DNA of 64,000 nt from an uncultured Gemmatimonadaceae bacterium (GTDB lineage: Bacteria; Gemmatimonadota; Gemmatimonadetes; Gemmatimonadales; GWC2-71-9). Below are positions 8,211 to 36,728 of this stretch, piece after piece (positions within the stretch are counted from its first letter, which is position 1; each line of letters begins with the position of its first letter). The DNA lies in NCBI GenBank assembly GCA_964638035.1, contig CAZWXD010000011.1, positions 24,875 through 88,874 on the forward strand, written 5' to 3'. Position numbers and translations under genes: made by a program. The notes under the pieces are model-generated. The model was not told the DNA's origin. It did not search any database and worked only from the letters and a program-made list of their open reading frames with translations.

Positions 8211-8234
8211 CCGTCGCAAGCTGAAACAATGCCA

Positions 8235-8268
8235 GAACGCCGGCCGTAAGGTCGGCGTTCCTGTTTTC
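8235..8268 (+). terminator. Rho-independent terminator
   Basis: GAACGCCGGCC - gtaa - GGTCGGCGTTC (11 bp, one G-U pair) followed by CTGTTTTCT. Confidence 0.7.
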
Positions 8269-8288
8269 TACGCTGTCAGGAGGTGCCC

Positions 8289-8966: not shown

Positions 8967-8973
8967 GACGCCC

Positions 8974-16114: not shown

Positions 16115-16167
16115 CTCGACCTGTTCCAGCGCTTGATCCTCCGGGCCCACCGGGCCACCCTTCTCCC

Positions 16168-18462
16168 ATGAAGCTTGTCCCATCCCTTGCGCTCGTGGCG
16201 CTTTCGCTGGCGCCATCCACCGCCGCACTCCCGACCGGGCAGCCACGGCCGACCGCAGCGCGCCTGGACTCCGCCGTCACGGCAGCGCGGGAGGCGCTGG
16301 GCGCGGGGCGGCCGTGGCGTGCCACCCGCCTGCTGGTGCCGCTCCTGCGCGACTCGGCGCTGCGCACCCCCGAGGTGGAGTACCTGGCGGCGCGTGCCGC
16401 GGTGGGATGGCAGGGCTGGCGTGAAACGACGCGGCTCCTGGGCAGTGCTGGCTGGCTCGACACCGCCTTCGCGGGGGAGGGCCACGAGCTGCTGGCCCGG
16501 GCGTGGCTCGGCCTCGGGAAGGACAGCAATGCCGTGCGCAGCGCGCGGCGGGCGGTGGACCAGGCTTCCTCTGATTCCGCGCGAGGCGCGCGCCTGGTGC
16601 TCCTGGGCCTGGCGTCGGAAGGTGCCGGCGACTGGGCGGGAGCGCTGGCGGCATGGACCGCCGCGCGCCCCCTCCTTCCCTCGATTGGCGACTGGCTTGC
16701 AGTGCGAGCGATTGCGGTGACGCCGGACTCGGCGGGCCGCGCGGCCCTTTCCGCAACCATCCTCGATTCGCTTCCGCGATCGCGCTGGCCAGTGGCCGAC
16801 GCCACGGGCTTCCTGCGCGCCGGGGACAGTGCGGGGGCCATCATGCGGTTTGCCTCGGCGGGCAGCTCGATCCGTGCCTTGCAGCTACGCCATGCAATGG
16901 CCGATTCGGCGGGGCGCGCCGGGCTCCGGAACGAGCTCGTGGCCTTCATCGAGGACCGGAGCGGCACGTCGGCGGCACGTTCCGCCGTGAACCTGCTGGA
17001 CAGCCTGGGCCTTCCGCTCACGCTGGCGGAGCACCTCACCATTGCGCGAAGCGCCACCAGGTCGGGCCCCCTGGCTCGTGCGAGCAAGGCCTATGGTGCT
17101 GCATTCGCGATCCGGGAACCGACCGCCGAGCAGCGGTATGCGCTGGCGGAGGTGTACTTCCGCCAGGGACGCTACGACGAGGCGATTGCCCAGTACCGGA
17201 AGGTGCGCACACCCGCCGGCCTGGCGGCCGCCGCGTCGTATCGTGCGGCACGCGCCATGGTGCGTGACGGCCGAGCGGGTGAGGGGCGCACGGTGCTGGG
17301 GCAGATCGTGAAGAAGTGGCCCAGGGACTCCTCGGCGGCACAGGCGCTGTACCTCCTGGCCGACCTCTCGACCGACGATCGCCACGATGGTGAGGCGCGG
17401 AGGTACTACGCCCGTATCGTGCGGGAACACCCGAAGAGCCGCCTCGCCGCGCCCGCGGCCTTCCGCGCCGGACTGATCGCGTTCGCGGACGGGCGGCTCG
17501 AGGTGGCCGGGACGGAGCTGGACGAACTCGACAAGCGCTACCCGAACCACAACGAGGCGACGGCCGCAGTGTACTGGGCGGGGCGGGCCTGGGGCGCGGC
17601 AGGTGACGAGGCGCGCGCGCGGGAGCGATGGAGCGAGGTCATCGCACGGGACTCGGCGTCGTACTACGCGGACCTGAGTGCCCGGCGCCTTGGCCTGGCG
17701 GGGTGGGCCCCCGCGGTCGCGCCCGACACCTTTGTCGCGGTTCCCGAGCTGGACCGTGGGGTGGCGCGTGCCGCGCTGCTGGCGCACCTCATGCTGGACG
17801 ACGAGGCCCGGGCGGAGCGTGCGCGGGTGGGGCGCCTGGCGCGGGGGTCAGCGGAGCAACTGCTGGCGGCCGCACACCTCCTGCAGCAGCAGGGCTACCC
17901 ATCGGAGGCGATCACGCTGGCACGACGGGCCCAGTCCGCAGGTGCCGCCCGTGATGCGCGACTCTACCGGTTGCTCTACCCGCTGGGCTTCCCGCTGGCG
18001 CTGATGGGAGAGTCGGAACGGAATGGCGTGGACCCGACGCTGGTGGCGGCACTCATCCGGCAGGAGTCGCTCTTCAACCCGGCGGCGACCTCGTCAGCGG
18101 GCGCGCGCGGGCTGATGCAGGTGATGCCCGACCTGGGCCGGCGGGTGGCGCGGGGGCTGGGCTACGAGGGATGGGACCCGGTCCTGCTCTGGGAAGGGGA
18201 TGCCAACCTGGAAATCGGCACCACGCACCTCAAGGAACTGGTGGATGCCCAGGGCAACCTCGTGGAGGTGCTGGCAGCGTACAACGCGGGGGCGCACCGC
18301 GTCGCGCGGTGGCGGACCCGGCTTGGCGCGGACGACCAGGAATTGTTCGCGGAGCGGATCCCGTTCGTGGAGACGCGGGACTACGTGCGGATCATCCAGC
18401 GAAATCAGGCGTTGTACCGTGCGCTGTACCCCGCCGTCGCCTCCCCCGTACAGGGAGGCTAG
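16168..18462 (+). CDS. slt: Soluble lytic murein transglycosylase (Slt70-like)
   Basis: Signal peptide MKLVPSLALVALSLAPS. Long alpha-superhelical/TPR-like region. C-terminal SLT domain LIRQESLFNPAATSSAGARGLMQVMP. Confidence 0.85.
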   Translation: MKLVPSLALVALSLAPSTAALPTGQPRPTAARLDSAVTAAREALGAGRPWRATRLLVPLLRDSALRTPEVEYLAARAAVGWQGWRETTRLLGSAGWLDTAFAGEGHELLARAWLGLGKDSNAVRSARRAVDQASSDSARGARLVLLGLASEGAGDWAGALAAWTAARPLLPSIGDWLAVRAIAVTPDSAGRAALSATILDSLPRSRWPVADATGFLRAGDSAGAIMRFASAGSSIRALQLRHAMADSAGRAGLRNELVAFIEDRSGTSAARSAVNLLDSLGLPLTLAEHLTIARSATRSGPLARASKAYGAAFAIREPTAEQRYALAEVYFRQGRYDEAIAQYRKVRTPAGLAAAASYRAARAMVRDGRAGEGRTVLGQIVKKWPRDSSAAQALYLLADLSTDDRHDGEARRYYARIVREHPKSRLAAPAAFRAGLIAFADGRLEVAGTELDELDKRYPNHNEATAAVYWAGRAWGAAGDEARARERWSEVIARDSASYYADLSARRLGLAGWAPAVAPDTFVAVPELDRGVARAALLAHLMLDDEARAERARVGRLARGSAEQLLAAAHLLQQQGYPSEAITLARRAQSAGAARDARLYRLLYPLGFPLALMGESERNGVDPTLVAALIRQESLFNPAATSSAGARGLMQVMPDLGRRVARGLGYEGWDPVLLWEGDANLEIGTTHLKELVDAQGNLVEVLAAYNAGAHRVARWRTRLGADDQELFAERIPFVETRDYVRIIQRNQALYRALYPAVASPVQGG

Positions 18463-18857
18463 GGCGAGAAGTCCCCGGCCTGCGCGGGACGGAACGTCAG
18501 GTCGAACGCCAGGAAGAGCAGCTTGGTGAACGGGTAGAACAGCAGCGGCGCCAGGAGCATGAACACCGCCGCCGTCCACGTGAGGAGGTCCCACGGCGGG
18601 GTGGGCCAGCGCCAGACGATGATGGCACCGAAGAGGGCGACGAAAGCCAGTTCCGCGCCAACCAGGTTGAACATGTAGCTCCCCACCCGGTAGCCCTCCT
18701 CGCCACGCTCCACCTTGAGCCCGCAGGTGGGACACCGGGGCCGGGCCGTGAACCAGCCGGAATACATGTCGCCGCCCCCGCAGTGCGGGCACCGCAGGGC
18801 GATGGCGCGGGTGGCCATGAGGAGTGGGTGGGGGCGTCGCGCTGGCATTCGGCTCAA
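18459..18857 (-). CDS. DUF983-like zinc-ribbon membrane protein
   Basis: CPHCGGG...CPTCG followed by two TM helices. The start may instead be the internal ATG at 18818. Confidence 0.55.
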   Translation of the reverse strand: MSRMPARRPHPLLMATRAIALRCPHCGGGDMYSGWFTARPRCPTCGLKVERGEEGYRVGSYMFNLVGAELAFVALFGAIIVWRWPTPPWDLLTWTAAVFMLLAPLLFYPFTKLLFLAFDLTFRPAQAGDFSP

Positions 18858-18938: not shown

Positions 18939-20624
18939 TTGATGGCCAACTCCCGCACCGTAACCCCGGTCTCCCTTGTGGCCGTGGGACCCGACACCCG
19001 GTCGCTCCCCCGCCAGCGCGCCCTGCTGGGGTGGCTCTTCGGGGCCCGCACGATCGTCGCGATCGTCACGCTCCTCATTGCCGCCCTGCAGTGGACCACC
19101 ACGCCCGACGTCTCGTTCATCCTCAGCATCTCGGTGCTGCTGACGCTGGTGGCCACCGCCTATGGCTGGTGGCGCACGCGCGTCCGGGGCGGGGACGTGA
19201 GCACCAGCTTCCTGCTGGTGCAGGCCCTGGCCGACCTGGCGCTGGTGACCACCCTGGTGCACTTCGCCAGCGCGCCGGCACTGTTCGCGTCGCTGTACGT
19301 GCTGGTGATCGCGGGGTACGCGATCCTCCTGCCGCCCCGCTGGGGGCTTGCGGTGGCAGCCGCGGCAACGGTGCTCTACGTGGGCGATACCCTGCTGGCC
19401 GGGGGACCGGGCGACGCCGCCTTCTGGGTGCAGGTCATCCTCTTCAACGTGGTGTTCGCGATCGTGGCGGTGCTGGGCAGCAGGCTCCGCCGGGCTGACG
19501 TGGAGCAGGTCACGCTGGAGACCGAACTCCGCCGGGTGAGGCTCGAGGCCGACGAGATCCTGCAGAACATCCGCTCCGGCGTGATTACGGTGGACGCCGA
19601 GGGGCGCCTGGCCTTCATCAACCCCACGGCGGAGCGGCTGCTGGGGATCGATGGAGACCGGCTCCTGGGCCGGGCCATCCTCGACAAGCTGCAGGCGCAG
19701 TCGAAGGACCTGGGGAGTGCCATCGTCGCCGGGATAAGGCAGGGGCGAAAGGTGAGCCGGGGCGAGGGCCTGGTGAAGGCAAATGGGCGGGTATTCCCCA
19801 TAGGCCTCAGCACCACCACCTTCCAGCCCGAGGATCGCGAGACCCCCTCGGTGACGGCGATCTTCACTGACATCTCGGAGCTGAAGCAACTGCAGGAGCT
19901 GCAGGCACGGGCCGAGCGGCTCCAGGCGGTTGCCGCGCTCTCGGCGTCGCTGGCGCACGAGATCCGGAACCCGCTCGCGTCCATCCGGAGCTCCTGCGAA
20001 CAGCTCGCACGCGGGAAGCACGCGAACGACGACGACCAGGTCCTGGCGGCGCTGATCGTCCGGGAGAGCGACCGGCTGAGCCGGCTCCTCAACGAGTTCC
20101 TCGACTTTGCGCGCGTGAAGGCGTCGCGGCACGAGGCCGTGGACCTGCTCGAGGTGGCAAAGGCGGCCGTGCGCATGGTCCAGGCGCACCCCGACTGCGG
20201 CCTCACGGCCGACGTGCGGGTCGAGGGCCAGGCCGCGATCCTGGACGGGGATGAGGACCTCCTGCACCGGGTGGTGGCCAACCTGGTGCTCAATGCGGTG
20301 CAGGCAGCGCGCGGCCAGGAGGTCCACGTGACGGTCCGGGTTGGGGGCATCCCCTTGGCCGAGCTGCCCAATGGGGCCGACTTCGAGCGGGCGGTGCGCC
20401 TGCAGGTGGAAGACGACGGCCCCGGGATCCCCGACGAGGTGCGCGAGCGGCTGTTCGAGCCATTTGTCTCAGGGCGGCCCGGTGGCAGCGGCCTGGGACT
20501 CGCCATTGTCCAGCGGGCGGTAGACGTGCACCGCGGGCTGGTCTACGTTGACACGAAGCTCCGGGCTGGCACGACCTTCACCATCCTGCTGCCCGCCAAC
20601 GCGCTGGGAGAGGAACTCGCATGA
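18939..20624 (+). CDS. pilS: PilS-like sensor histidine kinase
   Basis: Six N-terminal TM helices, a PAS-like segment, H-box LAHEIRNPLASI, ATPase boxes EDDGPGIP and GGSGLGLAIV. Overlaps the downstream activator gene. Confidence 0.8.
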   Translation: MMANSRTVTPVSLVAVGPDTRSLPRQRALLGWLFGARTIVAIVTLLIAALQWTTTPDVSFILSISVLLTLVATAYGWWRTRVRGGDVSTSFLLVQALADLALVTTLVHFASAPALFASLYVLVIAGYAILLPPRWGLAVAAAATVLYVGDTLLAGGPGDAAFWVQVILFNVVFAIVAVLGSRLRRADVEQVTLETELRRVRLEADEILQNIRSGVITVDAEGRLAFINPTAERLLGIDGDRLLGRAILDKLQAQSKDLGSAIVAGIRQGRKVSRGEGLVKANGRVFPIGLSTTTFQPEDRETPSVTAIFTDISELKQLQELQARAERLQAVAALSASLAHEIRNPLASIRSSCEQLARGKHANDDDQVLAALIVRESDRLSRLLNEFLDFARVKASRHEAVDLLEVAKAAVRMVQAHPDCGLTADVRVEGQAAILDGDEDLLHRVVANLVLNAVQAARGQEVHVTVRVGGIPLAELPNGADFERAVRLQVEDDGPGIPDEVRERLFEPFVSGRPGGSGLGLAIVQRAVDVHRGLVYVDTKLRAGTTFTILLPANALGEELA

Positions 20625-22009
20625 GCCAGAAGCCATCGGTCCTGGTGATCGACGACGAATCCGGCATTCTCGACACGCTCCGGATCCTCCTCCGGAACGA
20701 GGGATTCGAGGTCACCACGGCGCAGGGAGGGAAGGCCGGCCTGGAGCAGATCCGCACGGGGGCACACGACATCGTGCTCACCGACGTGCGGATGCCGCAG
20801 GTGTCGGGCCTGGACATCCTGAGTGCCGTGAAGGAGCAGGACCCGATGACGCCTGTCATCCTGATGACGGCCCAGGCATCGCTCCAGAGCGCCATCGGGG
20901 CGGTGAACACGGGGGCCTTCTACTACATCCAGAAGCCGTTCTCCAACGATGAACTGGTGGCGATCCTCCGGCGGGCGTGCGAGTTTCGCGCGATCCGGGT
21001 GGAGAACAAGCAGCTCCGTCAGGAGATCAAGCGCAAGGAGCGGGGCGCCGTCTCGCGGCCCATCGGCAAGTCGCGGCGCTTCCTCGACACCCTCAAGCTG
21101 GCCGAGCATGTCGCGCCCACCGATTCCACGGTGCTGATCCAGGGGGAGAGCGGCACGGGCAAGGAGGTGGTGGCGCGGTACATCCACGAGCTGTCCTCCC
21201 GCTCCGGGGGCCCCTTCCTCTCCATCAACTGCGGTGCATTGCCCGAGAGCCTGCTGGAGTCGGAACTGTTCGGCCATGTGAAGGGGAGCTTCACCGGGGC
21301 GGTGCGCGACAAGCAGGGCCTCTTCGCCGCGGCGCGGGGGGGCACCTTCTTCCTCGACGAAGTGGGCGAGATGCCCGCGTCGCTGCAGGTCAAGCTCCTG
21401 CGCGTGCTGCAGGAGCGGGAGGTGATCCCGGTGGGCGCCACCGAGGCGATCCCGGTGGACGTGCGGATCATCGCGGCCACCAACCGCGACCTGGAGGAAG
21501 AAATGCGGCGGGGCAACTTCCGCTCCGACCTCTTCTACCGGCTCAACGTCATTGCCCTGATGCTGCCGCCCCTCCGGGAGCGCCGGGACGACCTCCTCCT
21601 GCTCCTCGAGGGCTTCCTGCAGACGCTGGCCACGGAATCCGGGGGCGAGCCCAAGGCGCTGAGCCAGGAGGCGATGGACGCGGTGATGGTGTACGAGTGG
21701 CCCGGCAACGTGCGCGAGCTGGAGAACGCGCTGGAGCACGCCGTGGTGCTCTGCCGGGGCAGCCTGGTGGAGCCGCAGCACCTCCCGGAGCGGATCACCC
21801 GGCGGCGGAAGGAGCCGCTGGTGGCGGAACGGTCGTACCGCAACCCGACGCTGGAGGTGATCGAGCGGTCGTACATCATGTGGGTGCTGCAAGCGGAGGG
21901 CGGGAACAAGACGCGGGCAGCGGAGGTGCTGGGGATCGACCCCTCCACGCTGTACCGGAAGCTGGCGCGGTACGAGGAGCAGGTGGCGGAACTCCGGGCG
22001 CAGGCCTGA
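20621..22009 (+). CDS. pilR: PilR-like sigma54-dependent response regulator
   Basis: REC domain (HDIVLTDVRMP), AAA+ sigma54-interaction domain (GESGTGKE, GSFTGA), Fis-type HTH (NKTRAAEVLGIDPSTLYRKL). Confidence 0.85.
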   Translation: MSQKPSVLVIDDESGILDTLRILLRNEGFEVTTAQGGKAGLEQIRTGAHDIVLTDVRMPQVSGLDILSAVKEQDPMTPVILMTAQASLQSAIGAVNTGAFYYIQKPFSNDELVAILRRACEFRAIRVENKQLRQEIKRKERGAVSRPIGKSRRFLDTLKLAEHVAPTDSTVLIQGESGTGKEVVARYIHELSSRSGGPFLSINCGALPESLLESELFGHVKGSFTGAVRDKQGLFAAARGGTFFLDEVGEMPASLQVKLLRVLQEREVIPVGATEAIPVDVRIIAATNRDLEEEMRRGNFRSDLFYRLNVIALMLPPLRERRDDLLLLLEGFLQTLATESGGEPKALSQEAMDAVMVYEWPGNVRELENALEHAVVLCRGSLVEPQHLPERITRRRKEPLVAERSYRNPTLEVIERSYIMWVLQAEGGNKTRAAEVLGIDPSTLYRKLARYEEQVAELRAQA

Positions 22010-22010
22010 G

Positions 22011-22733
22011 GTGACTGCCGGGCCGGGGGACGCCGCTGGCGCGGAAACGCTGGAGATCATGTCGGCTGCCCCGCGGTACAACGCGTGGCAGTTCGAGCAG
22101 ATCGCCCCCTTCATCGGGCGGCGGGTGCTCGAGGTCGGCTCGGGTATTGGCAACATGTCCGAGCACATCGTGGCGGGTGGACGGGAGCTCGTGGTGCTCA
22201 CCGACACCGACGAGTGGTACCGGGAGCAGTTGCGCCAGCGGTTTCGCGACCGACCCGAGGTGCGGGTGGACACGCTCACCCTTCCCGATGCCGCGGCGGA
22301 GGCACGCTTCGGGGCCCTCGGCCTCGACACCGTCGTGGCCCTCAACGTGGTGGAGCACATCGACGACCACGTGGGCACCCTCCGCAGCATGGGGTCGCTG
22401 CTGGCCCCCGGTGGCAGGGTCGTCGTGCTGGTGCCGTCGCTCCCGGGCATCTATGGCACCCTCGATGCCGAGCTGGGCCACTTCCGGCGGTACACCCCGG
22501 CGTCGCTCCGCGGTGCGTTCACCGAGGCGGGCCTGCGCACGGAGTCCCTGAGCTGGTTCAATCGGGTGGGGACCCTGGGTTGGTGGTTCAACGCCCGCGT
22601 GCGCAAGGCGACGCGCATCCCGCTGGGGCAGCTCCGCTCCTTCGATGCCCTGGTGCCGCTCCTCCGGCTGGAACGATTCCTTCCGCTGCCGTTTGGCCAG
22701 TCCCTCATCGCGATTGGACGGCGCAATGGCTGA
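22011..22733 (+). CDS. Class I SAM-dependent methyltransferase
   Basis: Motif [11 protein letters not shown]. An alternative ATG start at 22059 is possible. Confidence 0.8.
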
Positions 22734-23445
22734 GTACGAGCTTCCCAGGCTGTCGGTCATCGTGCCCGTGTACAACGAGATTCGCACCCTGCGCACGATC
22801 ATCGACCGGCTGCACTCCGTGCCGTTGCCCATGGAGATCATCTGTGTCAACGATTGCTCGAAGGATGGCAGCGCGGAGCTGGTGGACCAGTTGAAGGCTG
22901 AGGGACTGGTGGAGGTGGCCTTCCACCAACCCGTCAACCGGGGGAAGGGCGCGGCGCTGCGCAAGGGCATCGAGCTTGCCACGGGTGACGTCATCGTGGT
23001 GCAGGACGCCGACCTGGAGTATGACCCGCACGAGTTTGGCCGGCTCCTGAGCCCGATCCTGGAGGGGAAGGCCGACGCGGTGTTCGGGTCCCGCTTTGCG
23101 GGTGGCGAGCGCCGGGTGCTGTACTACTGGCACTCCGTGGGCAACAAGCTGCTGACGCTGGTGTCCAACATGTTCACCAACCTGAACCTGACGGACATGG
23201 AGACCTGCTACAAGATGGTGCGGGCCCCCCTCATGAAGTCGCTGGTGCTCACCAGCGACCGGTTCGGCTTCGAGCCGGAGGTCACGGCGCGCCTGGCACA
23301 GGCGCGGGCCCGCATCTGGGAGATCCCCATCTCGTACTCCGGCCGCACGTATGAGGAAGGGAAGAAGATCGGGTGGAAGGATGGGGTGGCCGCGTTCATG
23401 CACATCCTGCGGTACAACATGTTTCCCCCATCCGCCAAGACCTGA
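22726..23445 (+). CDS. GT2 glycosyltransferase, Dpm1/polyprenyl-phosphate sugar synthase-like
   Basis: [30 protein letters not shown] (DxD). ATG overlaps the methyltransferase stop. Confidence 0.85.
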
Positions 23446-23468
23446 CTGAAGGGGGCGGACGACCCTCC

Positions 23469-25532
23469 GTGGATCACTCCAAGCTGTACGCTGGCACCTG
23501 GCCTGCCCGGGTCGCAGCCATCCTGCTTGGTGCATTCGGCCTCCTCCCACTCGCCTCGTGGATCCCAGGCGGCCCCTCGGCAGACTGGTTCACCGCGGCA
23601 GCAGGGGAGCTGGTCTCGGGCACACTCATCGCCATTGGTGGCGGGGTGGCCATCGCCATCCTCTTCCGGCGCCAGCTCATGCGGCTCGAGCCCTGGGTTG
23701 CGAAGGGCGACATGCAGGGGCCGCCTCCCTGGCGGGTGATAGTGGCGACAGCGGGCGTGGCGGGTGCCACCTACGCCGCGATCGCCGGTCGGGTGTTCTC
23801 GCGGAAGCCGCTCATCATCGATGAGATCGTGCAGGCGTGGCAGGCGCGCGTGTTTGCCTCCGGGCACCTCTGGGCCGACACGCCAGCCCGGCCCGAGTTC
23901 ACCGCGGTCCTGAACATCGTCAATGACGGTGCCAAGACGTACGCGCACTTTCCCCCGGGTGGACCGGCGGCCCTTGCACTGGGCGAGCTCGTCGGTGCGC
24001 AATGGCTGGTCGGGCCGTTCTTCGGCATGCTCTCGGTCCTGCTCGTGGGATGGCTGGCGCGGGAGATGGAGCCTCGCCGGCGAGTCGCCCTCCTGGCCAT
24101 GCTCCTCTTCACCTTCGCGCCGTTCACGGCCTTCATGGCCGGCTCGCACATGAACCATGTGCCGGGCCTGACCTTCCTGTTGCTCGGTGCGGCAGGGACC
24201 ATCGCAGTCCTGCGACAGCATCACCCCAGGCCGGGGATCGCGCTCGCGGCGGGCCTGGGGTTCGGCCTTGCGGCGACGATCCGCCCACTTGATGCGGTGG
24301 CATTCGCTCTCCCTGCAGGTGTGTGGTACCTCATCGAGGCCCGGCGGGATCGCGCCCGCGTGGCGGACCTGCTTGCAGCGGGAATCGGTGTCGCGGTGCC
24401 GATCACGATCCTGCTGCTGGTGCAGGATGCGATGACTGGCTCGCCGCTCAGGTTTGGCTATGAGGTGGAGTGGGGCGCCAACGTCGGGCTGGGATTCCGC
24501 GGAGCGCCCTGGGGAGATGCCCATACGCCGCTCAAGGGTCTCGAGCTCATCAGCCTGTATGTGCTCAGGCTCCAGGTCTATCTCTTCGAGACCCCGTTTC
24601 CCTCGCTCATTCCGGCGACCATTGCGCTGGCGTTCGTGCCGGGGCTGTCCAGGGCAGACAAGTACCTCCTTGCATGTGCCGCCCTGCTGGCCGGGGCATA
24701 TTTTGCCTACTGGCATGACGGCTTCTTCCTCGGCCCCAGGTTCTTCTACCCGCTGCTCCCCCTCCTCGCCCTGTGGACGGCGCGCTTGCCGCCGGTCATT
24801 CGCGACCGGCTCGGCGTGGGCCGGGCCTATTGGGTGGCGGCAGCAGCACTCGTCGTTGGCCTGCTGATTGCCGCGGCCGTCAGCGTGCCAATTCGCTGGC
24901 GGCACTATGCCAACAGCTTCACCACGTCACGATGGGATGCCGACAGCGCGGCGGCCGCTGCAGGCGTGCGCAATGCGCTGGTCCTGGTCCGCGAGAGTTG
25001 GGGCGCCCAACTGATCGCCCGGATGTGGGCGCTGGGCCTGCCGAAGGGCGAGGTGGAGTACCTCTATCGGAAGGTGGACGCCTGCCGCCTGGAGCAGGCC
25101 CTTGCCCGGCTGGAGGCCATGCCGCCCCGGAACAGGCCACCCGTGCCGGGCATCATCGCCGCGTTGCGGCCATTGACGGCAGATTCTTCCCGCCTGGTCA
25201 AGTCGCCGTGGTCAGCCGATACGACCGAGCGTACCCTGCCGGGCTCAGCGTACACGCCAACCTGCCTGCAGCGAATCAGCGAGGACCGGCGGGGCTTTAC
25301 GCTGTTCCCGCCACTACTGCTCGCGCGGGGAGGAGGCAACGTGTACGTGCGCGACCTCGGGGAGCGCAACCGTCCAATGCTCCTTGAACACCCCAGCCGG
25401 CCGCTGTACCTGCTGCGCCCTGACGCAGCGACGATCGGCAGTCCGCCGCGGTTCATCCTGCTCCGGCGGGACTCGCTGCTGGCTGGTGCGCCCGGGAGCA
25501 CGGCCACCCCGGACGTGGCGCCGTTGAGGTGA
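23469..25532 (+). CDS. Polytopic GT-C-fold glycosyltransferase (ArnT/PMT-like), putative
   Basis: 10 or more TM helices. First-loop PLIIDEIVQAWQA, then HFPPGGP. Soluble C-terminal domain. GTG start chosen; the ORF track starts at 23373. Confidence 0.55.
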   Translation: MDHSKLYAGTWPARVAAILLGAFGLLPLASWIPGGPSADWFTAAAGELVSGTLIAIGGGVAIAILFRRQLMRLEPWVAKGDMQGPPPWRVIVATAGVAGATYAAIAGRVFSRKPLIIDEIVQAWQARVFASGHLWADTPARPEFTAVLNIVNDGAKTYAHFPPGGPAALALGELVGAQWLVGPFFGMLSVLLVGWLAREMEPRRRVALLAMLLFTFAPFTAFMAGSHMNHVPGLTFLLLGAAGTIAVLRQHHPRPGIALAAGLGFGLAATIRPLDAVAFALPAGVWYLIEARRDRARVADLLAAGIGVAVPITILLLVQDAMTGSPLRFGYEVEWGANVGLGFRGAPWGDAHTPLKGLELISLYVLRLQVYLFETPFPSLIPATIALAFVPGLSRADKYLLACAALLAGAYFAYWHDGFFLGPRFFYPLLPLLALWTARLPPVIRDRLGVGRAYWVAAAALVVGLLIAAAVSVPIRWRHYANSFTTSRWDADSAAAAAGVRNALVLVRESWGAQLIARMWALGLPKGEVEYLYRKVDACRLEQALARLEAMPPRNRPPVPGIIAALRPLTADSSRLVKSPWSADTTERTLPGSAYTPTCLQRISEDRRGFTLFPPLLLARGGGNVYVRDLGERNRPMLLEHPSRPLYLLRPDAATIGSPPRFILLRRDSLLAGAPGSTATPDVAPLR

Positions 25533-25591
25533 TGGCTTGGCGCCTGATCAGGGGGAGCGCGCCAGCCATCGGCCTCGAGTGGGATCTGCCG

Positions 25592-27208
25592 CTATGGCCC
25601 TGGGGCCGGGTGGCGTGCCAGGAGGCTGTCCGCGCGGGTACGTAGCGGGACGAACTCCTTCAAGCCAAGCTGCTCACCCGCCAGGGCGGTCTCCCGCGCG
25701 GACACGACATCGCCCGTCTCCAATTGGCAGAAGTAGAGCCTGCTGCGCGACACCGTGAGGCTCGAGTCGACGGCGAGCGCCTTCCGCATGAACGGCGTGG
25801 CGTCCGCGCACCCCCGCAGGCGACGCACGATGTGCGACAGCTCCTCGAACACGCGAGGGTCGCCTCCGTACAGCCCAGCCGCCTGCAGGAAATGCTGCTC
25901 GGCTTCGAGCAGGCGGCCCTGACCATTGAGCGTAATCCCCAGCGTGTAGTGCGCCCGGTATCCTCGCGGCGAGTCGGCAACCGCCTGGCGCTGCAGGGTC
26001 AGGTCGTCCCTCCAGGCCAGCTGGCGGCGTGCCGAGTGGATACCGCCGAGGGCGACCAGTGCCGCAGCGGCGACCGGCCCTAGTCGGCGAAGCGCTGTTT
26101 GTCCGTGAGCGCGCTCTGCAAGCCACTGCCAGGTTGCCGCGAAGGCGAGCACGACACCGACGGAAGGCAGGAACAGCGTGCGCTCGGCGATGATGACCCC
26201 CGTCACGAACAGGAGGTTGCTGACCGGGGCAATTGCGATGATGGCCCAACCCAGGCCAAGCGTGATCACGGGCGCACCCTTTCGCGCTACCCAGGCAGCG
26301 AGGATGATGGCGACGAGCAGGGCGAGCCCGGCGAGCCCGGCGGCACCGAGCGTGGTTGCGGCGGTGAACTCGGGAGGGCTGTAGGAGATCCGGAGGTGCG
26401 CCGGCCAGACCAGCAGTCGCAGCCAGCTTGGAACCAGGGCGAGCATGGTGAGCGTGCGGCCCTCGATACCGAGGCCCCGCATCCCGAATGCCGGGGCACC
26501 ACCGCCAAGGCCCCCGAGCACAGCGAGGCGCAACGCAAGGGTGCAGAGGAGCACCACGGTGGCGGGCACGATGGCCTCGAAGATGGCGCGCTTGCGGTCG
26601 TGTGGGCGGGCTTGTGGGGCGACGACGGTGAACTCTGCCAGCAGCAGCAGGGCAGGAACGACAAACCCCTGTTCCTTGCTGAGGGCTGCCAGGGCCACCA
26701 GGCCGAGGAGCCCGAGGCGCGCCCCCGGGCCGGCCGTCCCTCGGCGCAGCTTGATGTAGAGTGCCACCGCGCTGATGCTCATCAGGGTGCAGAGGAGCTC
26801 GGACTGGCCCACCACGCCTGCGACGGCCTCGACGTGAACGGGATGCACGGCAAAGAGGGCCGCTGCCCAGAATGCAGGCCCCACGGGGAGCATCAGGCTT
26901 GCCAGCCAGAAGAGCGCGAGCGTCACGGCAGCGTAGGTCGCGATGCTCACCATGTGGAACACCAGGGGATTGCCGTTCCCGGCAGCCCACTGCAGGGCAA
27001 AGAACTGTACGGTCACCGGGCGATGGAGCGCCCCGCTGTGGTACGGCGGCCAGTAGCTCTGCCCCAGGTACGTCAGTGGTGACCCCAGGGTGTGCACCCG
27101 GGCGTTGTCCCGAACCATCGGCACATCGTCATACGTGAAGTCGTTGCCGATGCCTGGCAGCGCGACCGCCACGGCGAGCAGCGTCACCAGCAGGGCGGCG
27201 ATGCGCAT
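25592..27208 (-). CDS. TMTC-like polytopic glycosyltransferase with C-terminal TPRs (DUF1736-type)
   Basis: Internal ATG (MRIAALLVTLLAV). NDFTYDDVPMVRDN, AVHPVHVEAVAGV, many TM helices, C-terminal TPR-like repeats. Confidence 0.7.
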   Translation of the reverse strand: MRIAALLVTLLAVAVALPGIGNDFTYDDVPMVRDNARVHTLGSPLTYLGQSYWPPYHSGALHRPVTVQFFALQWAAGNGNPLVFHMVSIATYAAVTLALFWLASLMLPVGPAFWAAALFAVHPVHVEAVAGVVGQSELLCTLMSISAVALYIKLRRGTAGPGARLGLLGLVALAALSKEQGFVVPALLLLAEFTVVAPQARPHDRKRAIFEAIVPATVVLLCTLALRLAVLGGLGGGAPAFGMRGLGIEGRTLTMLALVPSWLRLLVWPAHLRISYSPPEFTAATTLGAAGLAGLALLVAIILAAWVARKGAPVITLGLGWAIIAIAPVSNLLFVTGVIIAERTLFLPSVGVVLAFAATWQWLAERAHGQTALRRLGPVAAAALVALGGIHSARRQLAWRDDLTLQRQAVADSPRGYRAHYTLGITLNGQGRLLEAEQHFLQAAGLYGGDPRVFEELSHIVRRLRGCADATPFMRKALAVDSSLTVSRSRLYFCQLETGDVVSARETALAGEQLGLKEFVPLRTRADSLLARHPAPGP

Positions 27209-27213
27209 GTGCC

Positions 27214-28959
27214 TCACTTTGCACCCGTGGCCGGCTTGGGCGTCCCGACGCGCGTGACTCGCGAACCAGCTCCCGCGGGCATCCGGACCGAGAAGGGCGG
27301 TACCGATGCGGTCGCGGCACTGTCCGCGAGGAGCATCGCACGCTCGAACTGCCGACGGTGGAAGTCCCACGCCTTGCCCATGCGCGCCACCCGGTACGCT
27401 TCAGGGTACCGCCCGAGCCAGAGGAGGCAGGCGACGAGCGACAACCTGGCATCCGCCCGGCCCGGTGCAACCTGCAAGGCGCGCTCGTACTCGATGACTG
27501 CCGGTTCACACAGGCCGTTGTCACGATAGAGGTCACCCAGGTCGGTCATGGCGGAGAAGGCACGTGGCCAGAGCGCAATGGCGCGCAGGTAGTGATATTC
27601 TGCCGGCCCGTTCAAGCCATGCGTCCTCGCGAGCTGGGCCGCCGAATGGTGGGCCCGGAAGCTCAGTGGCGCATCCTCAAGCGTGCGCTGCCACAGGTAG
27701 TCGTGGTTGTTCCACACGCCAATTCGCTGTGCACTCCGCGCCATCCCTGCGAGCACCAGCAGGAAGAGTACCGTGATGCCAAGGACCTGCACGCGTGGGC
27801 GCACTGCCGTCCACTGGCTGGCGAACCACGACACCACGACCGCTGCCCCCATGGCAACCCCGATACTCGGAAGCAACAGCGTGCGCTCGGCCACCGTGAT
27901 GCCCGTTGCGAGCAGGATGTTGGACACCGGGGCGAGGGAGATCGCAGCCCACAGGAAGCCAAGGGCGAGGACGGGGGCCCGCCTCCAGGCCATCGTGGTT
28001 ACCAGCGCGCTCCCGGCCAGGATTGCGAGTCCGAACCACTGCCAAGGTCCCATGCTCGTTGTCCCGACAATTTCCTGGGGCGAGTAGTCGGCCTGGAGGT
28101 GGGCGGGCCAGAGGAGGAGCCGGAGCCACGTCGGGACCACGCCGAGCATGGTCGTCAGGCGCCCCGCCGGGCCCAGCCCGTAGAAGGCCTCTGCCGCAAA
28201 GGTGCCGGCAAAGTTGCGGAGGACCAGTGTGCGGATGAGCAGGAATACCGCCGTGACCGTCAGCAGCCACGCGCCCAGCCGGATGCGCTGGCGGCGCATG
28301 GCCGGGTCCGCGTGGACCCCGCGCAGGACCGTCAGCTCACACGCGACGAGGAGCAGTGGAAGCACGATCGCGTGTTCCTTGAACAGGCACGCCACGCCGA
28401 ACGCCAGGAGGAGTGTGACCAGTTGCCGGGTGCTGAAGGCGGCCGCGCGCCGGGCATCGATGTATGCCGTGACGCACAGGGTGAGGATCAGGGCGACCAT
28501 GAGCTCACCCTGGTTCACTGCCGTCGCGACGGACTCGACATGGACTGGATGCACCGCGAACAGTGCAGCGGCAATGAAGGCCGGGGTGGGAGCAACCAGG
28601 CGCCGCAGCAGGCCCCAGACCGCCAGGACCAGGGCCACATACACCAGGATGCTCACGGCATGGAGGGCCGATGGGTGTTGCGCCGACAGGTGCCACTGGA
28701 GCGCAATGGAGAGGGTTCCGAACGGCCGGTACAGGTCCGGTGAGAACCCTGGGGGCCAGTAGGGCTTCTGGAAGACATCCAGCCCCGGCTGGGCGACGGC
28801 CGGATTCTTGAGGATGATGGCTACGTCATCGTGCGCCAACTGGTTGCCCACCCCCAACCCCATCGCTCCGATGGCGGCCAGGACCAGGACGGCCCGTGGC
28901 CTTTGAAGCGCGATTCCCGTCAAGCGGCCGACCGCGCGACTTGCAGATTCCAAGAACAT
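27214..28959 (-). CDS. TMTC-like polytopic glycosyltransferase with C-terminal TPRs (paralogue)
   Basis: NQLAHDDVAIILKN and AVHPVHVESVATAV, same TM/TPR layout as the paralogue. Its stop lies 5 nt before the paralogue's start. Divergent from pilA1. Confidence 0.7.
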   Translation of the reverse strand: MFLESASRAVGRLTGIALQRPRAVLVLAAIGAMGLGVGNQLAHDDVAIILKNPAVAQPGLDVFQKPYWPPGFSPDLYRPFGTLSIALQWHLSAQHPSALHAVSILVYVALVLAVWGLLRRLVAPTPAFIAAALFAVHPVHVESVATAVNQGELMVALILTLCVTAYIDARRAAAFSTRQLVTLLLAFGVACLFKEHAIVLPLLLVACELTVLRGVHADPAMRRQRIRLGAWLLTVTAVFLLIRTLVLRNFAGTFAAEAFYGLGPAGRLTTMLGVVPTWLRLLLWPAHLQADYSPQEIVGTTSMGPWQWFGLAILAGSALVTTMAWRRAPVLALGFLWAAISLAPVSNILLATGITVAERTLLLPSIGVAMGAAVVVSWFASQWTAVRPRVQVLGITVLFLLVLAGMARSAQRIGVWNNHDYLWQRTLEDAPLSFRAHHSAAQLARTHGLNGPAEYHYLRAIALWPRAFSAMTDLGDLYRDNGLCEPAVIEYERALQVAPGRADARLSLVACLLWLGRYPEAYRVARMGKAWDFHRRQFERAMLLADSAATASVPPFSVRMPAGAGSRVTRVGTPKPATGAK

Positions 28960-29041
28960 TCAATACACCGAGGGCTCAGGTTGGTGGTAGCCAGCATCGC
29001 AACTTATTGTAAAACTGTAAGTTAGGTGAGCAGCTGGCTCA

Positions 29042-29057
29042 TGGCATATGCATTGCC
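29042..29057 (+). promoter_or_regulatory. sigma54 (-24/-12) promoter of pilA1
   Basis: TGGCAT-atgca-TTGCC with GG-N10-GC spacing, 73 nt upstream of the pilA1 ATG. Confidence 0.7.
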
Positions 29058-29079
29058 CTTGCCAGCACTGGCGTTGCCA
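29049..29079 (-). promoter_or_regulatory. Two overlapping sigma54-like -24/-12 elements facing the TMTC-like genes
   Basis: The minus strand reads TGGCAA-cgcca-GTGCT and TGGCAA-gggca-ATGCA, both with GG-N10-GC spacing. They arise from the direct repeat TTGCCAGCAC x2 on the plus strand. The -12 boxes are imperfect. Confidence 0.35.
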
Positions 29080-29129
29080 GCACGGACTCGGCTCGAACGG
29101 GTCAAATACAAACTTCTGGGAGGTAGGAC

Positions 29130-29516
29130 ATGTTCAATCGCAAGGGCTTCACCCTCATCGAGCTGCTGATCGTGGTGGTGATCATCGGCATCCTGGCCGC
29201 GATCGCGATCCCGAAGTTCGCAGCGACCAAGGACAAGGCCAAGCTGGCGTCGATCAAGACCGACCTGCGGAACTACATGACCGCGCAGGAGGCGTACTTC
29301 TCCGACTACCAGACCTATGGCAGCTTTGCCAACGTCCAGACGGCGTCGAACTTTACGCTGTCGGCTGGCAACACCGGCGCGGGTGCGGCGGCGGCAGGTG
29401 GCTGGACGGCCGTGTTTACCAACACGTCGATCTCGACCGGTACGTCGAGCTGCAGCCTCGAGGTCGGCAGCAGCGCGGCGACCAGCACGGAAGATGGTGT
29501 GATCGACTGCCCGTGA
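29130..29516 (+). CDS. pilA: Type IVa major pilin
   Basis: MFNRKG/FTLIELLIVVVIIGILAAIAIP class III signal with Glu5. C-terminal Cys...Cys disulfide loop. GGGAGG Shine-Dalgarno sequence. Confidence 0.92.
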   Translation: MFNRKGFTLIELLIVVVIIGILAAIAIPKFAATKDKAKLASIKTDLRNYMTAQEAYFSDYQTYGSFANVQTASNFTLSAGNTGAGAAAAGGWTAVFTNTSISTGTSSCSLEVGSSAATSTEDGVIDCP

Positions 29517-29543
29517 GTTAGCACGGCAGGCGGGATTCCAGGG

Positions 29544-29590
29544 GCGGGCGGTAGCGACCAGTCGCTGCTGCCCGCTCTGCCTTTCCTGGT
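29544..29590 (+). terminator. Probable terminator hairpin after pilA1
   Basis: About 13-bp stem (GCGGGCGGTAGCG / CGCTGCTGCCCGC, two G-U pairs) followed by TCTGCCTTTCC. Confidence 0.45.
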
Positions 29591-29732
29591 AGTCAGGGGC
29601 CACACGCATCGTGGCCTTGAGCGTCGTCACCGGGGCGCAGAATACAAGCGAGGAACTGCACGAGTAGCTCCCATCATTGCATCTCCATGCGCAACTGCCA
29701 TTCGGCCAGCAGGTTAGCTCGCCAGCGGATCA

Positions 29733-29748
29733 TGGCATCCCGGTTGCA
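29733..29748 (+). promoter_or_regulatory. sigma54 (-24/-12) promoter of the second pilin gene
   Basis: TGGCAT-cccgg-TTGCA, a full consensus core, 64 nt upstream of the GTG at 29812. An 8-bp leader hairpin GGGGAGGC/GCCTCCCC lies at about 29766..29786. Confidence 0.75.
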
Positions 29749-29811
29749 TGTTCCTGAGTTCAGCCGGGGAGGCTCGGGGCCTCCCCAAGGATCTCCAACC
29801 AGGGGAACACG

Positions 29812-30204
29812 GTGCCAGCCGCTCGCAGGGGCTTTACGCTGATCGAACTGCTGATCGTGGTCGTGATCGTCGGCCTCCTGGCCGCGATTGCGATCCCGAA
29901 GTTCGCGAGCACGAAGGGAAACGCCGCCGTAGCGAAGATGAAGGGTGACTTGAGGAACCTCGCAACGGCGCAGGAAGCGTACTATGGCGACGCGAACACC
30001 TTTTATTCAGGCGTGGTGCCGTCCGCGGCCCTGGTCTACAACCCCTCGGAGGGAGTGACCATCACGATGGACCATGCCGACGCCACGGGATGGGGTGCGA
30101 CCGCCAGTTACGCTTCCCTGACACCCCGCACATGTGCCCTCTTTGCGGGACCCACGCCCGTGGCTCCCGCGACCGTCGAGGGCATGATCGCCTGCACCAA
30201 CTGA
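29812..30204 (+). CDS. Type IVa pilin (second, divergent copy)
   Basis: MPAARRG/FTLIELLIVVVIVGLLAAIAIP with Glu5. C-terminal Cys...Cys loop. Confidence 0.9.
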   Translation: MPAARRGFTLIELLIVVVIVGLLAAIAIPKFASTKGNAAVAKMKGDLRNLATAQEAYYGDANTFYSGVVPSAALVYNPSEGVTITMDHADATGWGATASYASLTPRTCALFAGPTPVAPATVEGMIACTN

Positions 30205-32770: not shown

Positions 32771-32877
32771 CCCCGTGCCGCCGGGCTGCGCGTTTTCCAT
32801 CCGGCCTGCGCTCCCACGCTGACGAACCTCCCTCACTGAACCACTATCGTGGTGCCTCCACATCCTGGAGCACCCCG

Positions 32878-33222
32878 ATGGCCACCCGCAGCGGCTTCTC
32901 CCTGGTCGAGGTCATCCTCGCCCTGTTTGTCCTCTCCGTGGGGCTCCTCGCCGTCGCCCGTGCACTGGGCCTCGCCGAGGGTGTCGGTGGGAGGCTGCGC
33001 GAGCGGAGCCGCGCGGTCTTCGACATGCACGACGCGGCTGCGCGCTATCACCGGGCGGACACGGTGTGCCTGGCTTCATCGGGGAGCCGCCGTGCGGGAC
33101 GCATCACGTTCTCCTGGGCACCGGGGCCGGCCGCCGCCACGCGTCGCACGACGATCGTGTCCGAGCCGCCGTACCAAGGGGCGCGGCCCGAGTCGGCCGC
33201 GTCGGTGGTGGCGTGCCCATGA
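32878..33222 (+). CDS. Minor pilin (PilV/GspH-like prepilin)
   Basis: MATRSG/FSLVEVILALFVLSVGLL prepilin cleavage/methylation motif with Glu5. Confidence 0.7.
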   Translation: MATRSGFSLVEVILALFVLSVGLLAVARALGLAEGVGGRLRERSRAVFDMHDAAARYHRADTVCLASSGSRRAGRITFSWAPGPAAATRRTTIVSEPPYQGARPESAASVVACP

Positions 33223-34016
33223 CCGCCCATGCCGGTGCACGGCGTTATGGGGCCACGCTCATTGAGCTGCTCGTGGCGCTCACCATCAGCGCAATAGTCC
33301 TCGGCGCTGCCGTTCGCCTCATGCTCGGCGCCGTACGCAGCAGCGACCGGACGCACGAACGCGCGCGACAGCAGGCCATGTTCCGGGCCGTTGGCAGGAT
33401 GCTGTCGCACGAGATCGCCGGCATCGATCCCGCCAGCGACATCGGCGGCATCGCGCCGGAGAGCCTCACGGTGCGCGCCCTTCGGGGCTCCGGCCGCACG
33501 TGCGGCACCGATGCCGGCGCGCTGGTGGTCGCCACCGCCACGTTCCACGGCTGGCGGTTGCCCGATATGCGGCGCGACAGCCTCCGCGTGCCAGCCGCCA
33601 CGGGCGATGCGTGGACCACCGAGCCGCTGCTCGGTGCGGTGTCGAGTTCGCGCTGCGCCGACGGCACGCCCGGGCTGCGCCTTCCGGTTGGCCGCGCGCT
33701 CGCGGCGCGGGCAGCCGTGGCAAGCATCGCGGTGCGCGTGACGGAATGGGTGCGGTTCCGGGTCTATGCCAACGCAGAGGGCTGGTGGCTGGGCCAGCGC
33801 TCGCTCCGGCGCGCCGACGTCGTCCAGCCCATTGCCGGGCCGTTCTCCAGCGGGGCACTCACGTTCCAGGCGCTCGATGGCGCCGGAGCGCCAACGGTCG
33901 ACGCGCGTGCCCTTCGGAGCCTCGCGGTGGCCATGCGGACCAGGCACGATGGCACCATGCGGGGCGTTGCAGCCGATTCGGTGCTGGCATGGGTGTGGTC
34001 GGGGGGTGGCCCATGA
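33219..34016 (+). CDS. Minor pilin (PilW-like prepilin)
   Basis: Internal ATG overlapping the upstream stop. RRYG/ATLIELLVALTISAIVLG. Confidence 0.7.
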   Translation: MTAHAGARRYGATLIELLVALTISAIVLGAAVRLMLGAVRSSDRTHERARQQAMFRAVGRMLSHEIAGIDPASDIGGIAPESLTVRALRGSGRTCGTDAGALVVATATFHGWRLPDMRRDSLRVPAATGDAWTTEPLLGAVSSSRCADGTPGLRLPVGRALAARAAVASIAVRVTEWVRFRVYANAEGWWLGQRSLRRADVVQPIAGPFSSGALTFQALDGAGAPTVDARALRSLAVAMRTRHDGTMRGVAADSVLAWVWSGGGP

Positions 34017-34477
34017 CGCCACGTCGTGGCATCACCCTGGTGGCGGTGCTGGTCCTGCTCCTGGTCCTCGGTGCCGTGCTGGGCGGCCTGCCCTGGATCC
34101 TCAAGGCAGAGGCCGTCGCGGCCCGGGACGACCTTGCCGCCCTCCGTGCCGACCTTGCCGCGCGAGCCGTGGTGGCCATGTCCCGCCGCTACCTGGAGGG
34201 GGCGCCACCCGAGAGCCTGGCGTCGCTGGTGGCGCAAATGCCACCGCCGGTGCACCTCGCGGGGGGCGCCATTGGCTACGCCGAGCTGGAGTTGCTGGAC
34301 AGCATCCAGCTCGAGGTCGTGGCCCAGGGGTTCGCCGGCGAGCGCGGGGCCTCCCTGGCGCGGCAGCAGTTGTGTGTGCTGTTCGCGGTGCGGCAGGTGC
34401 CTGACTCGACCGGATCCCGGACGGCGATTCGTGCCGAGCTTCCGGCGGCGCAGGTGGAATGCGGGAGCGGCCCCTGA
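34013..34477 (+). CDS. PilX-like pilus minor component
   Basis: Internal ATG overlapping the upstream stop. RRG/ITLVAVLVLLLVLGAVL hydrophobic N-terminus lacking Glu5. Confidence 0.55.
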   Translation: MTPRRGITLVAVLVLLLVLGAVLGGLPWILKAEAVAARDDLAALRADLAARAVVAMSRRYLEGAPPESLASLVAQMPPPVHLAGGAIGYAELELLDSIQLEVVAQGFAGERGASLARQQLCVLFAVRQVPDSTGSRTAIRAELPAAQVECGSGP

Positions 34478-34668
34478 GGCCAGCGGCCGGATCGGTGCAG
34501 TATGTGGGGCTGGGGTGCAGCTTTTGGCCCGCCCGATTGTTGGCGCGGCAAGGTGAGAAAGGCCATGCATTTGGGAGGGTGAGGCGGTTCCCCGGACGGC
34601 CCGCCGGAGCTAAGGTGATGCTGGTCAACTCCTTGCGGTACCAAGACATATCCTTCCAATGCAACGCA

Positions 34669-34684
34669 TGGCATATGGGTTGCT
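34669..34684 (+). promoter_or_regulatory. sigma54 (-24/-12) promoter about 270 nt upstream of pilM
   Basis: TGGCAT-atggg-TTGCT with GG-N10-GC spacing, sharing the CATGGCAT flank of both pilin promoters. Confidence 0.6.
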
Positions 34685-34951
34685 CCTACCCCTAACGCCT
34701 TGCACCCCAGCGCGATCGGCTCGCCGGGCATGCTCCAGAAACTGGCTGGTGACTCAGAGCTTGACGATCCAGTTTGTCATGGAGTCGGTGACCGAGGGTT
34801 GGCGGCGCGGGCGGTACATCCTGACAGTATCACATAAGCTATTGATATCATTGAGCTTGTTGGGTGCAAGCTCAGCTTGGATTGGCGTTGACAAGCGGCG
34901 CAGGACTCGCCTGGCGTGGTCCTGCATAACCCCCCAACAACCGGGCACCAC

Positions 34952-35995: not shown

Positions 35996-36014
35996 TCCCG
36001 GGAGCCCAACAGCC

Positions 36015-36725: not shown

Positions 36726-36728
36726 GCC

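Follow-up and report, generated by a model that had tools for sequence, protein, structure and literature searches.

Type IV pilin glycosylation by a polytopic enzyme encoded next to the pilin gene is already known from Pseudomonas aeruginosa/paraeruginosa, and we compare with it here a gene cassette that adjoins the pilin genes pilA1 and pilA2 of an uncultured Gemmatimonadota bacterium. The cassette lies in a 64,000-nucleotide stretch of DNA (the window; GenBank assembly GCA_964638035.1, contig CAZWXD010000011.1, positions 24,875 to 88,874). In the Pseudomonas system, which modifies the group IV pilin, the enzyme is TfpW (GenBank AAM52060.1), a 646-aa glycosyltransferase of the C type (GT-C). 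In its published description, the N-terminus is cytoplasmic, 11 transmembrane (TM) helices follow, the first periplasmic loop bears a DDx motif, and the C-terminal tetratricopeptide repeat (TPR) domain is periplasmic. Its gene lies beside pilA, and the protein is required for D-arabinofuranosylation of pilin Ser/Thr residues from a polyprenyl-phosphate donor. TfpW has homologues in Azotobacter, Acinetobacter venetianus, Teredinibacter, and Kingella. The eukaryotic cadherin O-mannosyltransferases TMTC1-4 (CAZy GT105) have a published topology of 11 TM helices as well. In the window, five genes lie between the regulator gene pilR and the two pilin genes:

22011-22733, forward strand: S-adenosylmethionine (SAM)-dependent methyltransferase, accessory and clade-restricted (Methyltransf_23, E 5.9e-15; also Methyltransf_12 and Methyltransf_11)
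22726-23445, forward strand: soluble family 2 glycosyltransferase (GT2), predicted polyprenyl-phosphate sugar synthase, Dpm1/GtrB/ArnC-like (PF00535, E 1e-32)
23469-25532, forward strand: 687-aa polytopic membrane protein, probable ArnT/PMT-like GT-C enzyme with a C-terminal extracytoplasmic domain (Pfam PMT, 23.9 bits)
25592-27208, reverse strand: TMTC-like GT-C paralogue A, 538 aa, TM domain plus C-terminal TPRs (TPR_16/TPR_19; 38% identity to paralogue B, E 1e-81)
27214-28959, reverse strand: TMTC-like GT-C paralogue B, 581 aa, 11 modelled TM helices plus a TPR domain of ~130 aa (PMT_2 and TPRs)
29130-29516, forward strand: pilA1, type IVa major-pilin-like prepilin and candidate acceptor (N_methyl motif)
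29812-30204, forward strand: pilA2, second prepilin (N_methyl motif)

We propose that the cassette encodes a polyprenyl-phosphate-sugar-dependent periplasmic O-glycosylation module that belongs to the surrounding type IVa pilus cluster and acts on the adjacent pilins, a reading to which we assign a probability of roughly 0.5. The narrower claim, that these genes form a lipid-donor-dependent extracytoplasmic glycosylation module, can be made with considerable confidence. An initial annotation of this DNA had raised the idea of a lipid-phosphate-sugar glycosylation module with the pilins as possible substrate, and the fold and the gene neighborhood now support it as a hypothesis in which the acceptor is presumed. 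All five genes lie where that annotation had placed them, and their lengths (240, 239, 687, 538, and 581/549 aa) are confirmed by gene calls made independently on public contigs of identical sequence. The methyltransferase gene starts within 1-2 nt of the pilR stop, and the GT2 start overlaps the methyltransferase stop by 8 nt; the gaps that follow are 23, 59, and 5 nt, the last of them between paralogues A and B. The start of paralogue B lies 170 nt from pilA1, in divergent orientation. The overlap and the 5-nt and 170-nt spacings, like the quoted sequence motifs (DD and AVHPVHVE among them) and the C-terminal TPRs, are present as first described.

Matched by description, the cassette resembles the TfpW system in having, next to pilA, a gene for a GT-C protein with 11 TM helices, a DD motif, and C-terminal TPRs, the orientation of which is predicted here. 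It differs in the donor: TfpW uses decaprenyl/polyprenyl-phosphate-D-arabinofuranose, made from phosphoribosyl pyrophosphate by DprE1/E2-type enzymes, whereas the enzyme here is a GT2 of the Dpm1/GtrB/ArnC type. No DprE1/E2-like gene was found among the window genes scanned, and the GT2 is the only donor-type enzyme in the cassette. Moreover, tfpW lies 3′ of pilA, whereas the cassette genes occupy the interval from pilR to pilA; a GtrA-like protein belongs to the TfpW system but was not seen here; and the present locus has a second polytopic enzyme and an arrangement conserved across the phylum. The YX6PFX7P motif of TfpW was, by eye, not evident in the loop after residues D291-Y292 of the TMTC-like family. 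Our literature search found no paper linking TfpW with TMTC or DUF1736, and none giving a function to bacterial GT105/TMTC-like enzymes. The initial annotation was aware of no experimentally assigned substrate for bacterial TMTC-like proteins; this was too strong, because TfpW, an 11-TM GT-C enzyme with periplasmic TPRs, modifies a pilin. What is new here is the presence at pilA of sequence-verified TMTC homologues together with a predicted hexose-type lipid-donor synthase; the sugar and the acceptor we infer.

Other systems share fewer features. The three-component Gtr and Arn systems (GtrA/GtrB/GtrV and ArnC/ArnEF/ArnT) likewise combine a GT2 polyprenyl-phosphate synthase with an extracytoplasmic GT-C enzyme, but they include a flippase gene (GtrA, ArnE/F) that this cassette lacks, their synthases GtrB and ArnC carry C-terminal TM helices that the GT2 does not, and their acceptor is O-antigen or lipid A rather than protein. 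PglL and TfpO (PilO) are polytopic inner-membrane proteins that serve periplasmic O-glycosylation of pilins, and tfpO adjoins pilA. Both transfer preassembled undecaprenyl-diphosphate-linked oligosaccharides and belong to an O-antigen-ligase-like (Wzy_C) family; here, in contrast, none of the three polytopic proteins gave a Wzy_C match. In Neisseria, pglL is unlinked to pilE, which corrects an earlier statement that PglL is encoded beside the pilin gene. Synechococcus elongatus Ogt (Synpcc7942_0051) is a TPR-bearing glycosyltransferase encoded beside pilA and needed for pilin glycosylation, but it is a soluble GT41 enzyme (GT-B fold) with N-terminal TPRs and a nucleotide-sugar donor, not a membrane GT-C protein with a lipid donor.

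Fold and TMTC homology of the paralogues

Paralogue B matches PMT_2 (32.4 bits; Pfam cut-off 26.1) and carries C-terminal TPRs. In its AlphaFold model (pLDDT 86 at full length; 83 with pTM 0.88 for the TM domain alone), a positively charged N-terminal tail and 11 long helices, the number published for TMTC, precede a TPR domain at residues 419-550 (~3-4 TPRs, ~130 aa). The TM domain is modelled as a GT-C fold: the best 30 PDB matches in a Foldseek search with this domain were all GT-C enzymes, among them STT3, AglB, PglB, ArnT, Pmt1/2/4, EmbB, AftA, DPY19, and ALG9/12, with the Pmt1/2/4 matches distant (E 6.5e-3 to 5.5e-2). The outcome of this structure search is the one that the initial annotation had expected. 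When the full-length model was used, TPR matches crowded the Foldseek results, which became informative with the TM domain alone; PDB sequence and profile searches with the polytopic proteins returned TPR proteins only, or nothing for the TM domains, and no TMTC structure turned up in them.

We rebuilt ten TMTC1-4 N-domains (human, zebrafish, and fly) from the supplementary alignment of PMC7801869. A Gemmatimonadota TM-domain profile matched all ten, with E values from 2e-39 to 2.5e-30 (Z=1e6), and hhalign aligned the two families along the whole length of the 11-TM GT-C domain (probability 100%, E 7e-39, 393 columns, 24% identity). An ArnT control taken from the same alignment went undetected by this profile, so the link to TMTC is specific. 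By these comparisons, the paralogues are true homologues of the catalytic domain of eukaryotic TMTC1-4, in agreement with the TMTC-like identity first given to them. The Pfam model TMTC_DUF1736 gave subthreshold matches only, in 17 of 32 members (best E 0.0033), with 12.7 bits for the window protein (cut-off 27). No MIR domain was found, and the PMT-plus-MIR architecture of the PMT enzymes (GT39) is thus absent. A tblastn search of 72,556 plasmids with the TM domain gave no match. The family as a whole is very large (85,212 representative clusters at E<=1e-3; 6544 at E<=1e-30).

The published TMTC motifs M1-M7 are DD, SHKSYRP, RxD, KE(T/Q)xxT, DW, PxxP, and ERxxY. To follow them we used 111 TMTC-like copies from Gemmatimonadota loci, chosen by the motif LFAVHP(I/V)HTE, the retention of which follows from that choice. 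The DD motif is preserved (D44 in 109/109, D45 in 104/109), as are K194-E195 of the fourth motif (110/110), and an acidic residue at position 291 ([D/E], 101/110) is followed by Y292 where TMTC has DW. E358-R359 of the last motif are retained with its Tyr changed to Phe or Leu, and of PxxP only one Pro remains. Residues with a putative role in catalysis or donor binding are accordingly nearly invariant in the aligned copies. The cores shared with TMTC are DD, YRP, LFAVHP(V/I)H(T/V)E, KE, D-[W/Y], PxSN, and AER, and both families have a C-terminal TPR domain on the non-cytoplasmic side (predicted here). The families differ in that P-D-L stands here in place of the SHK of SHKSYRP, and QxE in place of RxD, the TPR domain is short compared with the long TMTC arrays, and the donor lipid here would be undecaprenyl rather than dolichyl.

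These data bear on the suggestion that the TPR-bearing polytopic proteins are noncatalytic pilus assembly or stability factors, analogues of PilF/PilW/Tgl in which the GT-C ancestry is vestigial. A weak match to the PilW TPR model (E 3e-5, with a score far under the cut-off) is indeed seen in the TPR part of paralogue A, and two motif residues are lost in this paralogue, although it retains DD, HPxHxE, KE, and ER. The near invariance of the putative active-site residues and the co-conservation of a donor-synthesizing GT2 argue otherwise, and PilF, PilW, and Tgl are lipoproteins without a TM domain; we consider this explanation highly improbable.

Predicted donor synthase and companion polytopic protein

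The GT2 (239 aa) contains a DAD motif and has no TM segment. Its best PDB sequence matches are ArnC, the Pyrococcus Dol-P-Man synthase (5mlz), and GtrB (5ekp), and among NCBIfam models it comes closest to AglJ, PpgS, and ArnC, with a score far below the cut-off in each case. Because the nearest solved relatives are all polyprenyl-phosphate glycosyltransferases, we assign it to the Dpm1/GtrB/ArnC type and predict that it is a polyprenyl-phosphate sugar synthase, which fits the Dpm1/Ppm1-like label it had been given at the outset. The methyltransferase also lacks a TM segment; tblastn over the related loci described below found close orthologues in only three of them (L003, L011, and L012).

The 687-aa protein is probably a GT-C enzyme. 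It exceeds the Pfam PMT cut-off narrowly (23.9 versus 22.7 bits, over 117 residues only), has subthreshold matches to DUF2142 and to the NCBIfam LA_3751/3752 "putative glycosyltransferase" family, and carries the motifs IIDE and HFPPGGP. Thirty-one homologues share invariant D118, E119, F161-P162-G164-G165-P166, C539, and C599, with the two Cys residues in a C-terminal domain of ~200 aa. It has no PDB match, its profiles show no link to ArnT or TMTC, and profile-profile comparison with the TMTC-like family was not significant, so its GT-C status is tentative. Where the initial annotation had counted three GT-C enzymes, the assignment thus holds for the two paralogues and is marginal for this protein. 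In 30 loci it is replaced, between pilR and GT2, by a polytopic protein of 524 aa (for example, L059 at 7567-9141). The latter belongs to Gemmatimonadaceae-type loci, has the first-loop motifs YDD and HFPPGYP, and overlaps its neighbors at its start and stop codons; it has no Pfam match and resembles the unrelated 687-aa protein at the motif level only.

It is on this donor side of the cassette that a nonprotein acceptor has to be weighed. On the model of ArnC/ArnT or GtrB/GtrV, the module could serve lipid A or lipopolysaccharide core, exopolysaccharide, or peptidoglycan, with the pili merely coregulated through PilSR. Lipid or polysaccharide acceptors are indeed served by the GT2 relatives ArnC and GtrB, the 687-aa protein has ArnT/PMT-like loop motifs, and the 1-nt and overlapping junctions after pilR make it probable that the methyltransferase, GT2, and 687-aa genes belong to the pilSR operon and not to that of pilA. 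However, the enzymes nearest pilA are homologous to the TMTC protein O-mannosyltransferases, not to ArnT, and carry protein-binding TPRs; their best Foldseek matches are the protein-glycosylating STT3, AglB, and PglB; and no lipopolysaccharide or exopolysaccharide biosynthesis genes were identified among the neighbors scanned. A nonprotein acceptor is therefore unlikely.

Conservation of the cassette beside pilA

We surveyed related loci in one scan that took one genome per species (GTDB). It yielded 79 loci among the best 80 listed, all 79 of them from Gemmatimonadota, Longimicrobiales included. Window proteins were mapped onto these loci by tblastn, and the 29 loci in which each flank measured 6 kb or more formed a flank-evaluable subset. 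The recurrent order is pilS, pilR, a polytopic protein in some loci, GT2, one to three TMTC-like genes, one to four pilA genes, in some loci a second kinase/regulator pair, pilM, and pilN. A pilus-cluster location was seen in 26/29 evaluable loci; the TMTC-like genes have a pilin gene no more than 1.2 kb away in 24/29 (60/79 overall) and, in 20/29, a GT2 orthologue (≥55% identity) no more than 9 kb away. Orthologues of pilS stand 5′ of the cassette, and pilR orthologues that are 61-85% identical flank it. Because the arrangement recurs in dozens of related genomes, the juxtaposition did not arise by chance, and the co-occurrence of TMTC-like genes with pilA, for which the initial annotation had proposed a survey, is kept across the phylum.

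The TMTC-like and pilA genes are codirectional in 41 loci (Gemmatimonadaceae and Longimicrobiales) and divergent in 20 (the window's clade). Metagenome-assembled Gemmatimonas loci (L019, L030, L064, L074, and L075) have the codirectional order pilR, polytopic protein, GT2, TMTC-like gene, pilA. With TMTC-like genes present in one to three copies, adjacency to pilA has thus survived both inversion and duplication.

This history is relevant to a further explanation, in which the module glycosylates periplasmic proteins generally, or other pilus targets such as minor pilins, PilQ, or PilO/P, with the pilins at most one substrate of many, as for Neisseria PglL. Protein binding is a generic function of TPR domains, the family counts thousands of representative clusters even at the stricter threshold, and it has members outside pilus loci, one of them 3′ of a gene for a secreted FG-GAP/ASPIC-UnbV protein. 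The pilus-linked subgroup nonetheless stays beside pilA, and not beside pilQ or the minor pilin genes, through inversions and duplications, and general systems of the PglL kind are typically unlinked to the pilin gene. We regard such a substrate range as unlikely. The opposite view, that the TMTC-like enzymes are orthologue-grade homologues of the metazoan TMTC proteins and are O-glycosyltransferases dedicated to type IV pilins, with a Dpm1-like undecaprenyl-phosphate-sugar synthase as their donor source, in a pairing ancestral to the phylum, is one that we put forward tentatively.

The member just mentioned is a non-pilus TMTC-like paralogue in L033 (6126-11632), where it lies directly 3′ of a gene for a 1253-aa FG-GAP/ASPIC-UnbV repeat protein; that protein is a possible alternative acceptor.

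Pilus cluster, predicted regulation, and proposed pathway

The cassette is located inside a complete type IVa pilus cluster (pilBTC...pilSR...pilA...pilMNOPQ), in DNA of ~70% G+C across the window. The layout pilB-pilT-pilC...pilS-pilR...pilA...pilS2-pilR2...pilMNOPQ resembles that of the Myxococcus xanthus pil locus. Other features of the cluster are as follows:

17-1600: pilB, the start of the pilus cluster, with pilT and pilC next
18939-20624, forward strand: pilS-type sensor histidine kinase (HATPase_c, HisKA, PAS, and a weak 6TM_PilS match)
20621-22009, forward strand: pilR-type sigma-54 response regulator (Sigma54_activat, E 8.5e-71; Response_reg; HTH_8)
29042-29056, forward strand: sigma-54-type promoter motif TGGCATATGCATTGC 5′ of pilA1, one mismatch to TGGCAC-N5-TTGC, 74 nt from the ATG
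29733-29747, forward strand: sigma-54-type promoter motif TGGCATCCCGGTTGC 5′ of pilA2, one mismatch, 65 nt from the start codon
30269-32770: second kinase/sigma-54 regulator pair, between pilA1/pilA2 and pilM
34916-40067: pilM-N-O-(P)-Q

Just 5′ of pilS, a reverse-strand gene (18459-18857) encodes a 132-aa protein with a zinc ribbon and two TM segments, labeled DUF983-like by sequence inspection alone; it converges on an 807-aa TPR/lytic transglycosylase-like gene (16039-18462), with a 4-nt overlap at its end. Between the second regulator and pilM, the region 32800-34900 has a G+C content of 71-74%, and third-position GC marked out no clear genes in it. It contains one prepilin-like open reading frame (ORF) at 32878-33222 (MATRSGFSLVEV...) and is presumably a minor-pilin region.

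The motif TGGCA[CT]-N5-TTGC occurs 5′ of pilA1, pilA2, and pilM (the last at 34669-34683, forward strand). In related loci, a motif of this sigma-54 type was found in 14/70 upstream regions of pilin genes and in 15/5000 control windows, an enrichment of ~67-fold that is consistent with PilR control; regulation by PilSR and sigma-54 would follow from these sequence matches. On the reverse strand, two weaker matches of the GG-N10-GC type lie at 29050-29079, which is 90-120 nt 5′ of paralogue B and within the 170-nt intergenic region that it shares with pilA1. This hints at divergent sigma-54 promoters shared by the glycosyltransferase operon and pilA1. Two perfect matches to TGGCA[CT]-N5-TTGC were also seen elsewhere in the window, at 61492-61506 and 62777-62791. 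A scan of the cassette for sigma-70 promoters and terminators gave matches at or below chance level.

For both pilins the best NCBIfam match is PilA_Myxo, which for pilA1 reached E 7.9e-19, far below the model's cut-off. The pilins had initially been described as Ser/Thr-rich. This holds for PilA1, in which Ser and Thr make up 21.9% of the residues, but much less so for PilA2 (14.6%); in neighboring proteins the proportion is ~10%. The globular parts of the pilins average 30% Ser plus Thr (range 16-48%), against the same ~10%.

From the gene content and the models, we infer an acceptor, a sugar, a flippase step, a membrane topology, an order of action, and a division of labor as follows. On the cytoplasmic face, the soluble GT2 would transfer a sugar, probably a hexose or N-acetylhexosamine, from a nucleotide sugar to undecaprenyl phosphate. 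In the window's clade, the translationally coupled methyltransferase may methylate this sugar. The lipid-linked sugar would then be flipped by a factor encoded outside the cassette and reach the active site of a TMTC-like GT-C enzyme (DD/KE/D-Y/ER) at the periplasmic membrane surface. There, the periplasmic C-terminal TPR domain would dock the globular domain of the membrane-anchored prepilin or pilin, and the enzymes would transfer the sugar to pilin Ser/Thr residues before pilus assembly. The second polytopic protein (687 aa here; 524 aa in Gemmatimonadaceae) could extend or diversify the glycan or serve other sites.

Several observations weigh against this proposal. The pilins are a likely but presumptive acceptor: sequences rich in Ser/Thr are widespread among type IV pilins, and the content of PilA2 is low. 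No GtrA/ArnEF-like flippase ORF, nor room for one, was found in 22011-29130. Paralogue A has the substitutions Y77H (LYRP to LHRP) and D291S (D-Y to S-Y), and Ser at position 291 occurs in 2/110 copies from related loci; the changes may reflect altered specificity or reduced activity. Among the 24 evaluable loci with a linked pilin gene, six have no GT2 orthologue. TMTC-like paralogues occur outside pilus loci in L029, L033, L040, and L048, so the family is not pilin-specific. The correlation of TMTC-like copy number with pilin gene number was weak and not significant (rho 0.34, p 0.087, kinship ignored). Finally, with every locus drawn from a single phylum, some of the synteny may reflect common descent and not selection.

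TMTC1-4 are linked to disease, namely cobblestone lissencephaly and hearing loss. According to the 2021 study of TMTC motifs, TMTC transferase activity had not been shown directly. A bacterial homologue with its probable acceptor encoded next door, a donor synthase in the same cluster, and a short TPR domain would offer a simple system for reconstituting or crystallizing the TMTC-type reaction. If the proposal is true, a TMTC homologue verified by sequence would for the first time have a bacterial substrate, the locus would be a genetically tractable model for acceptor recognition by TPRs, and TfpW and TMTC might be united as one family glycosylating membrane-anchored adhesive proteins. A further prediction concerns Gemmatimonadota, a soil phylum that is abundant and little studied: its pili would be glycosylated by a route other than that of PglL/TfpO, with hexose-type lipid donors instead of the arabinofuranose donor of TfpW. 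Such modification is relevant to adhesion, surface properties, and resistance to phage.

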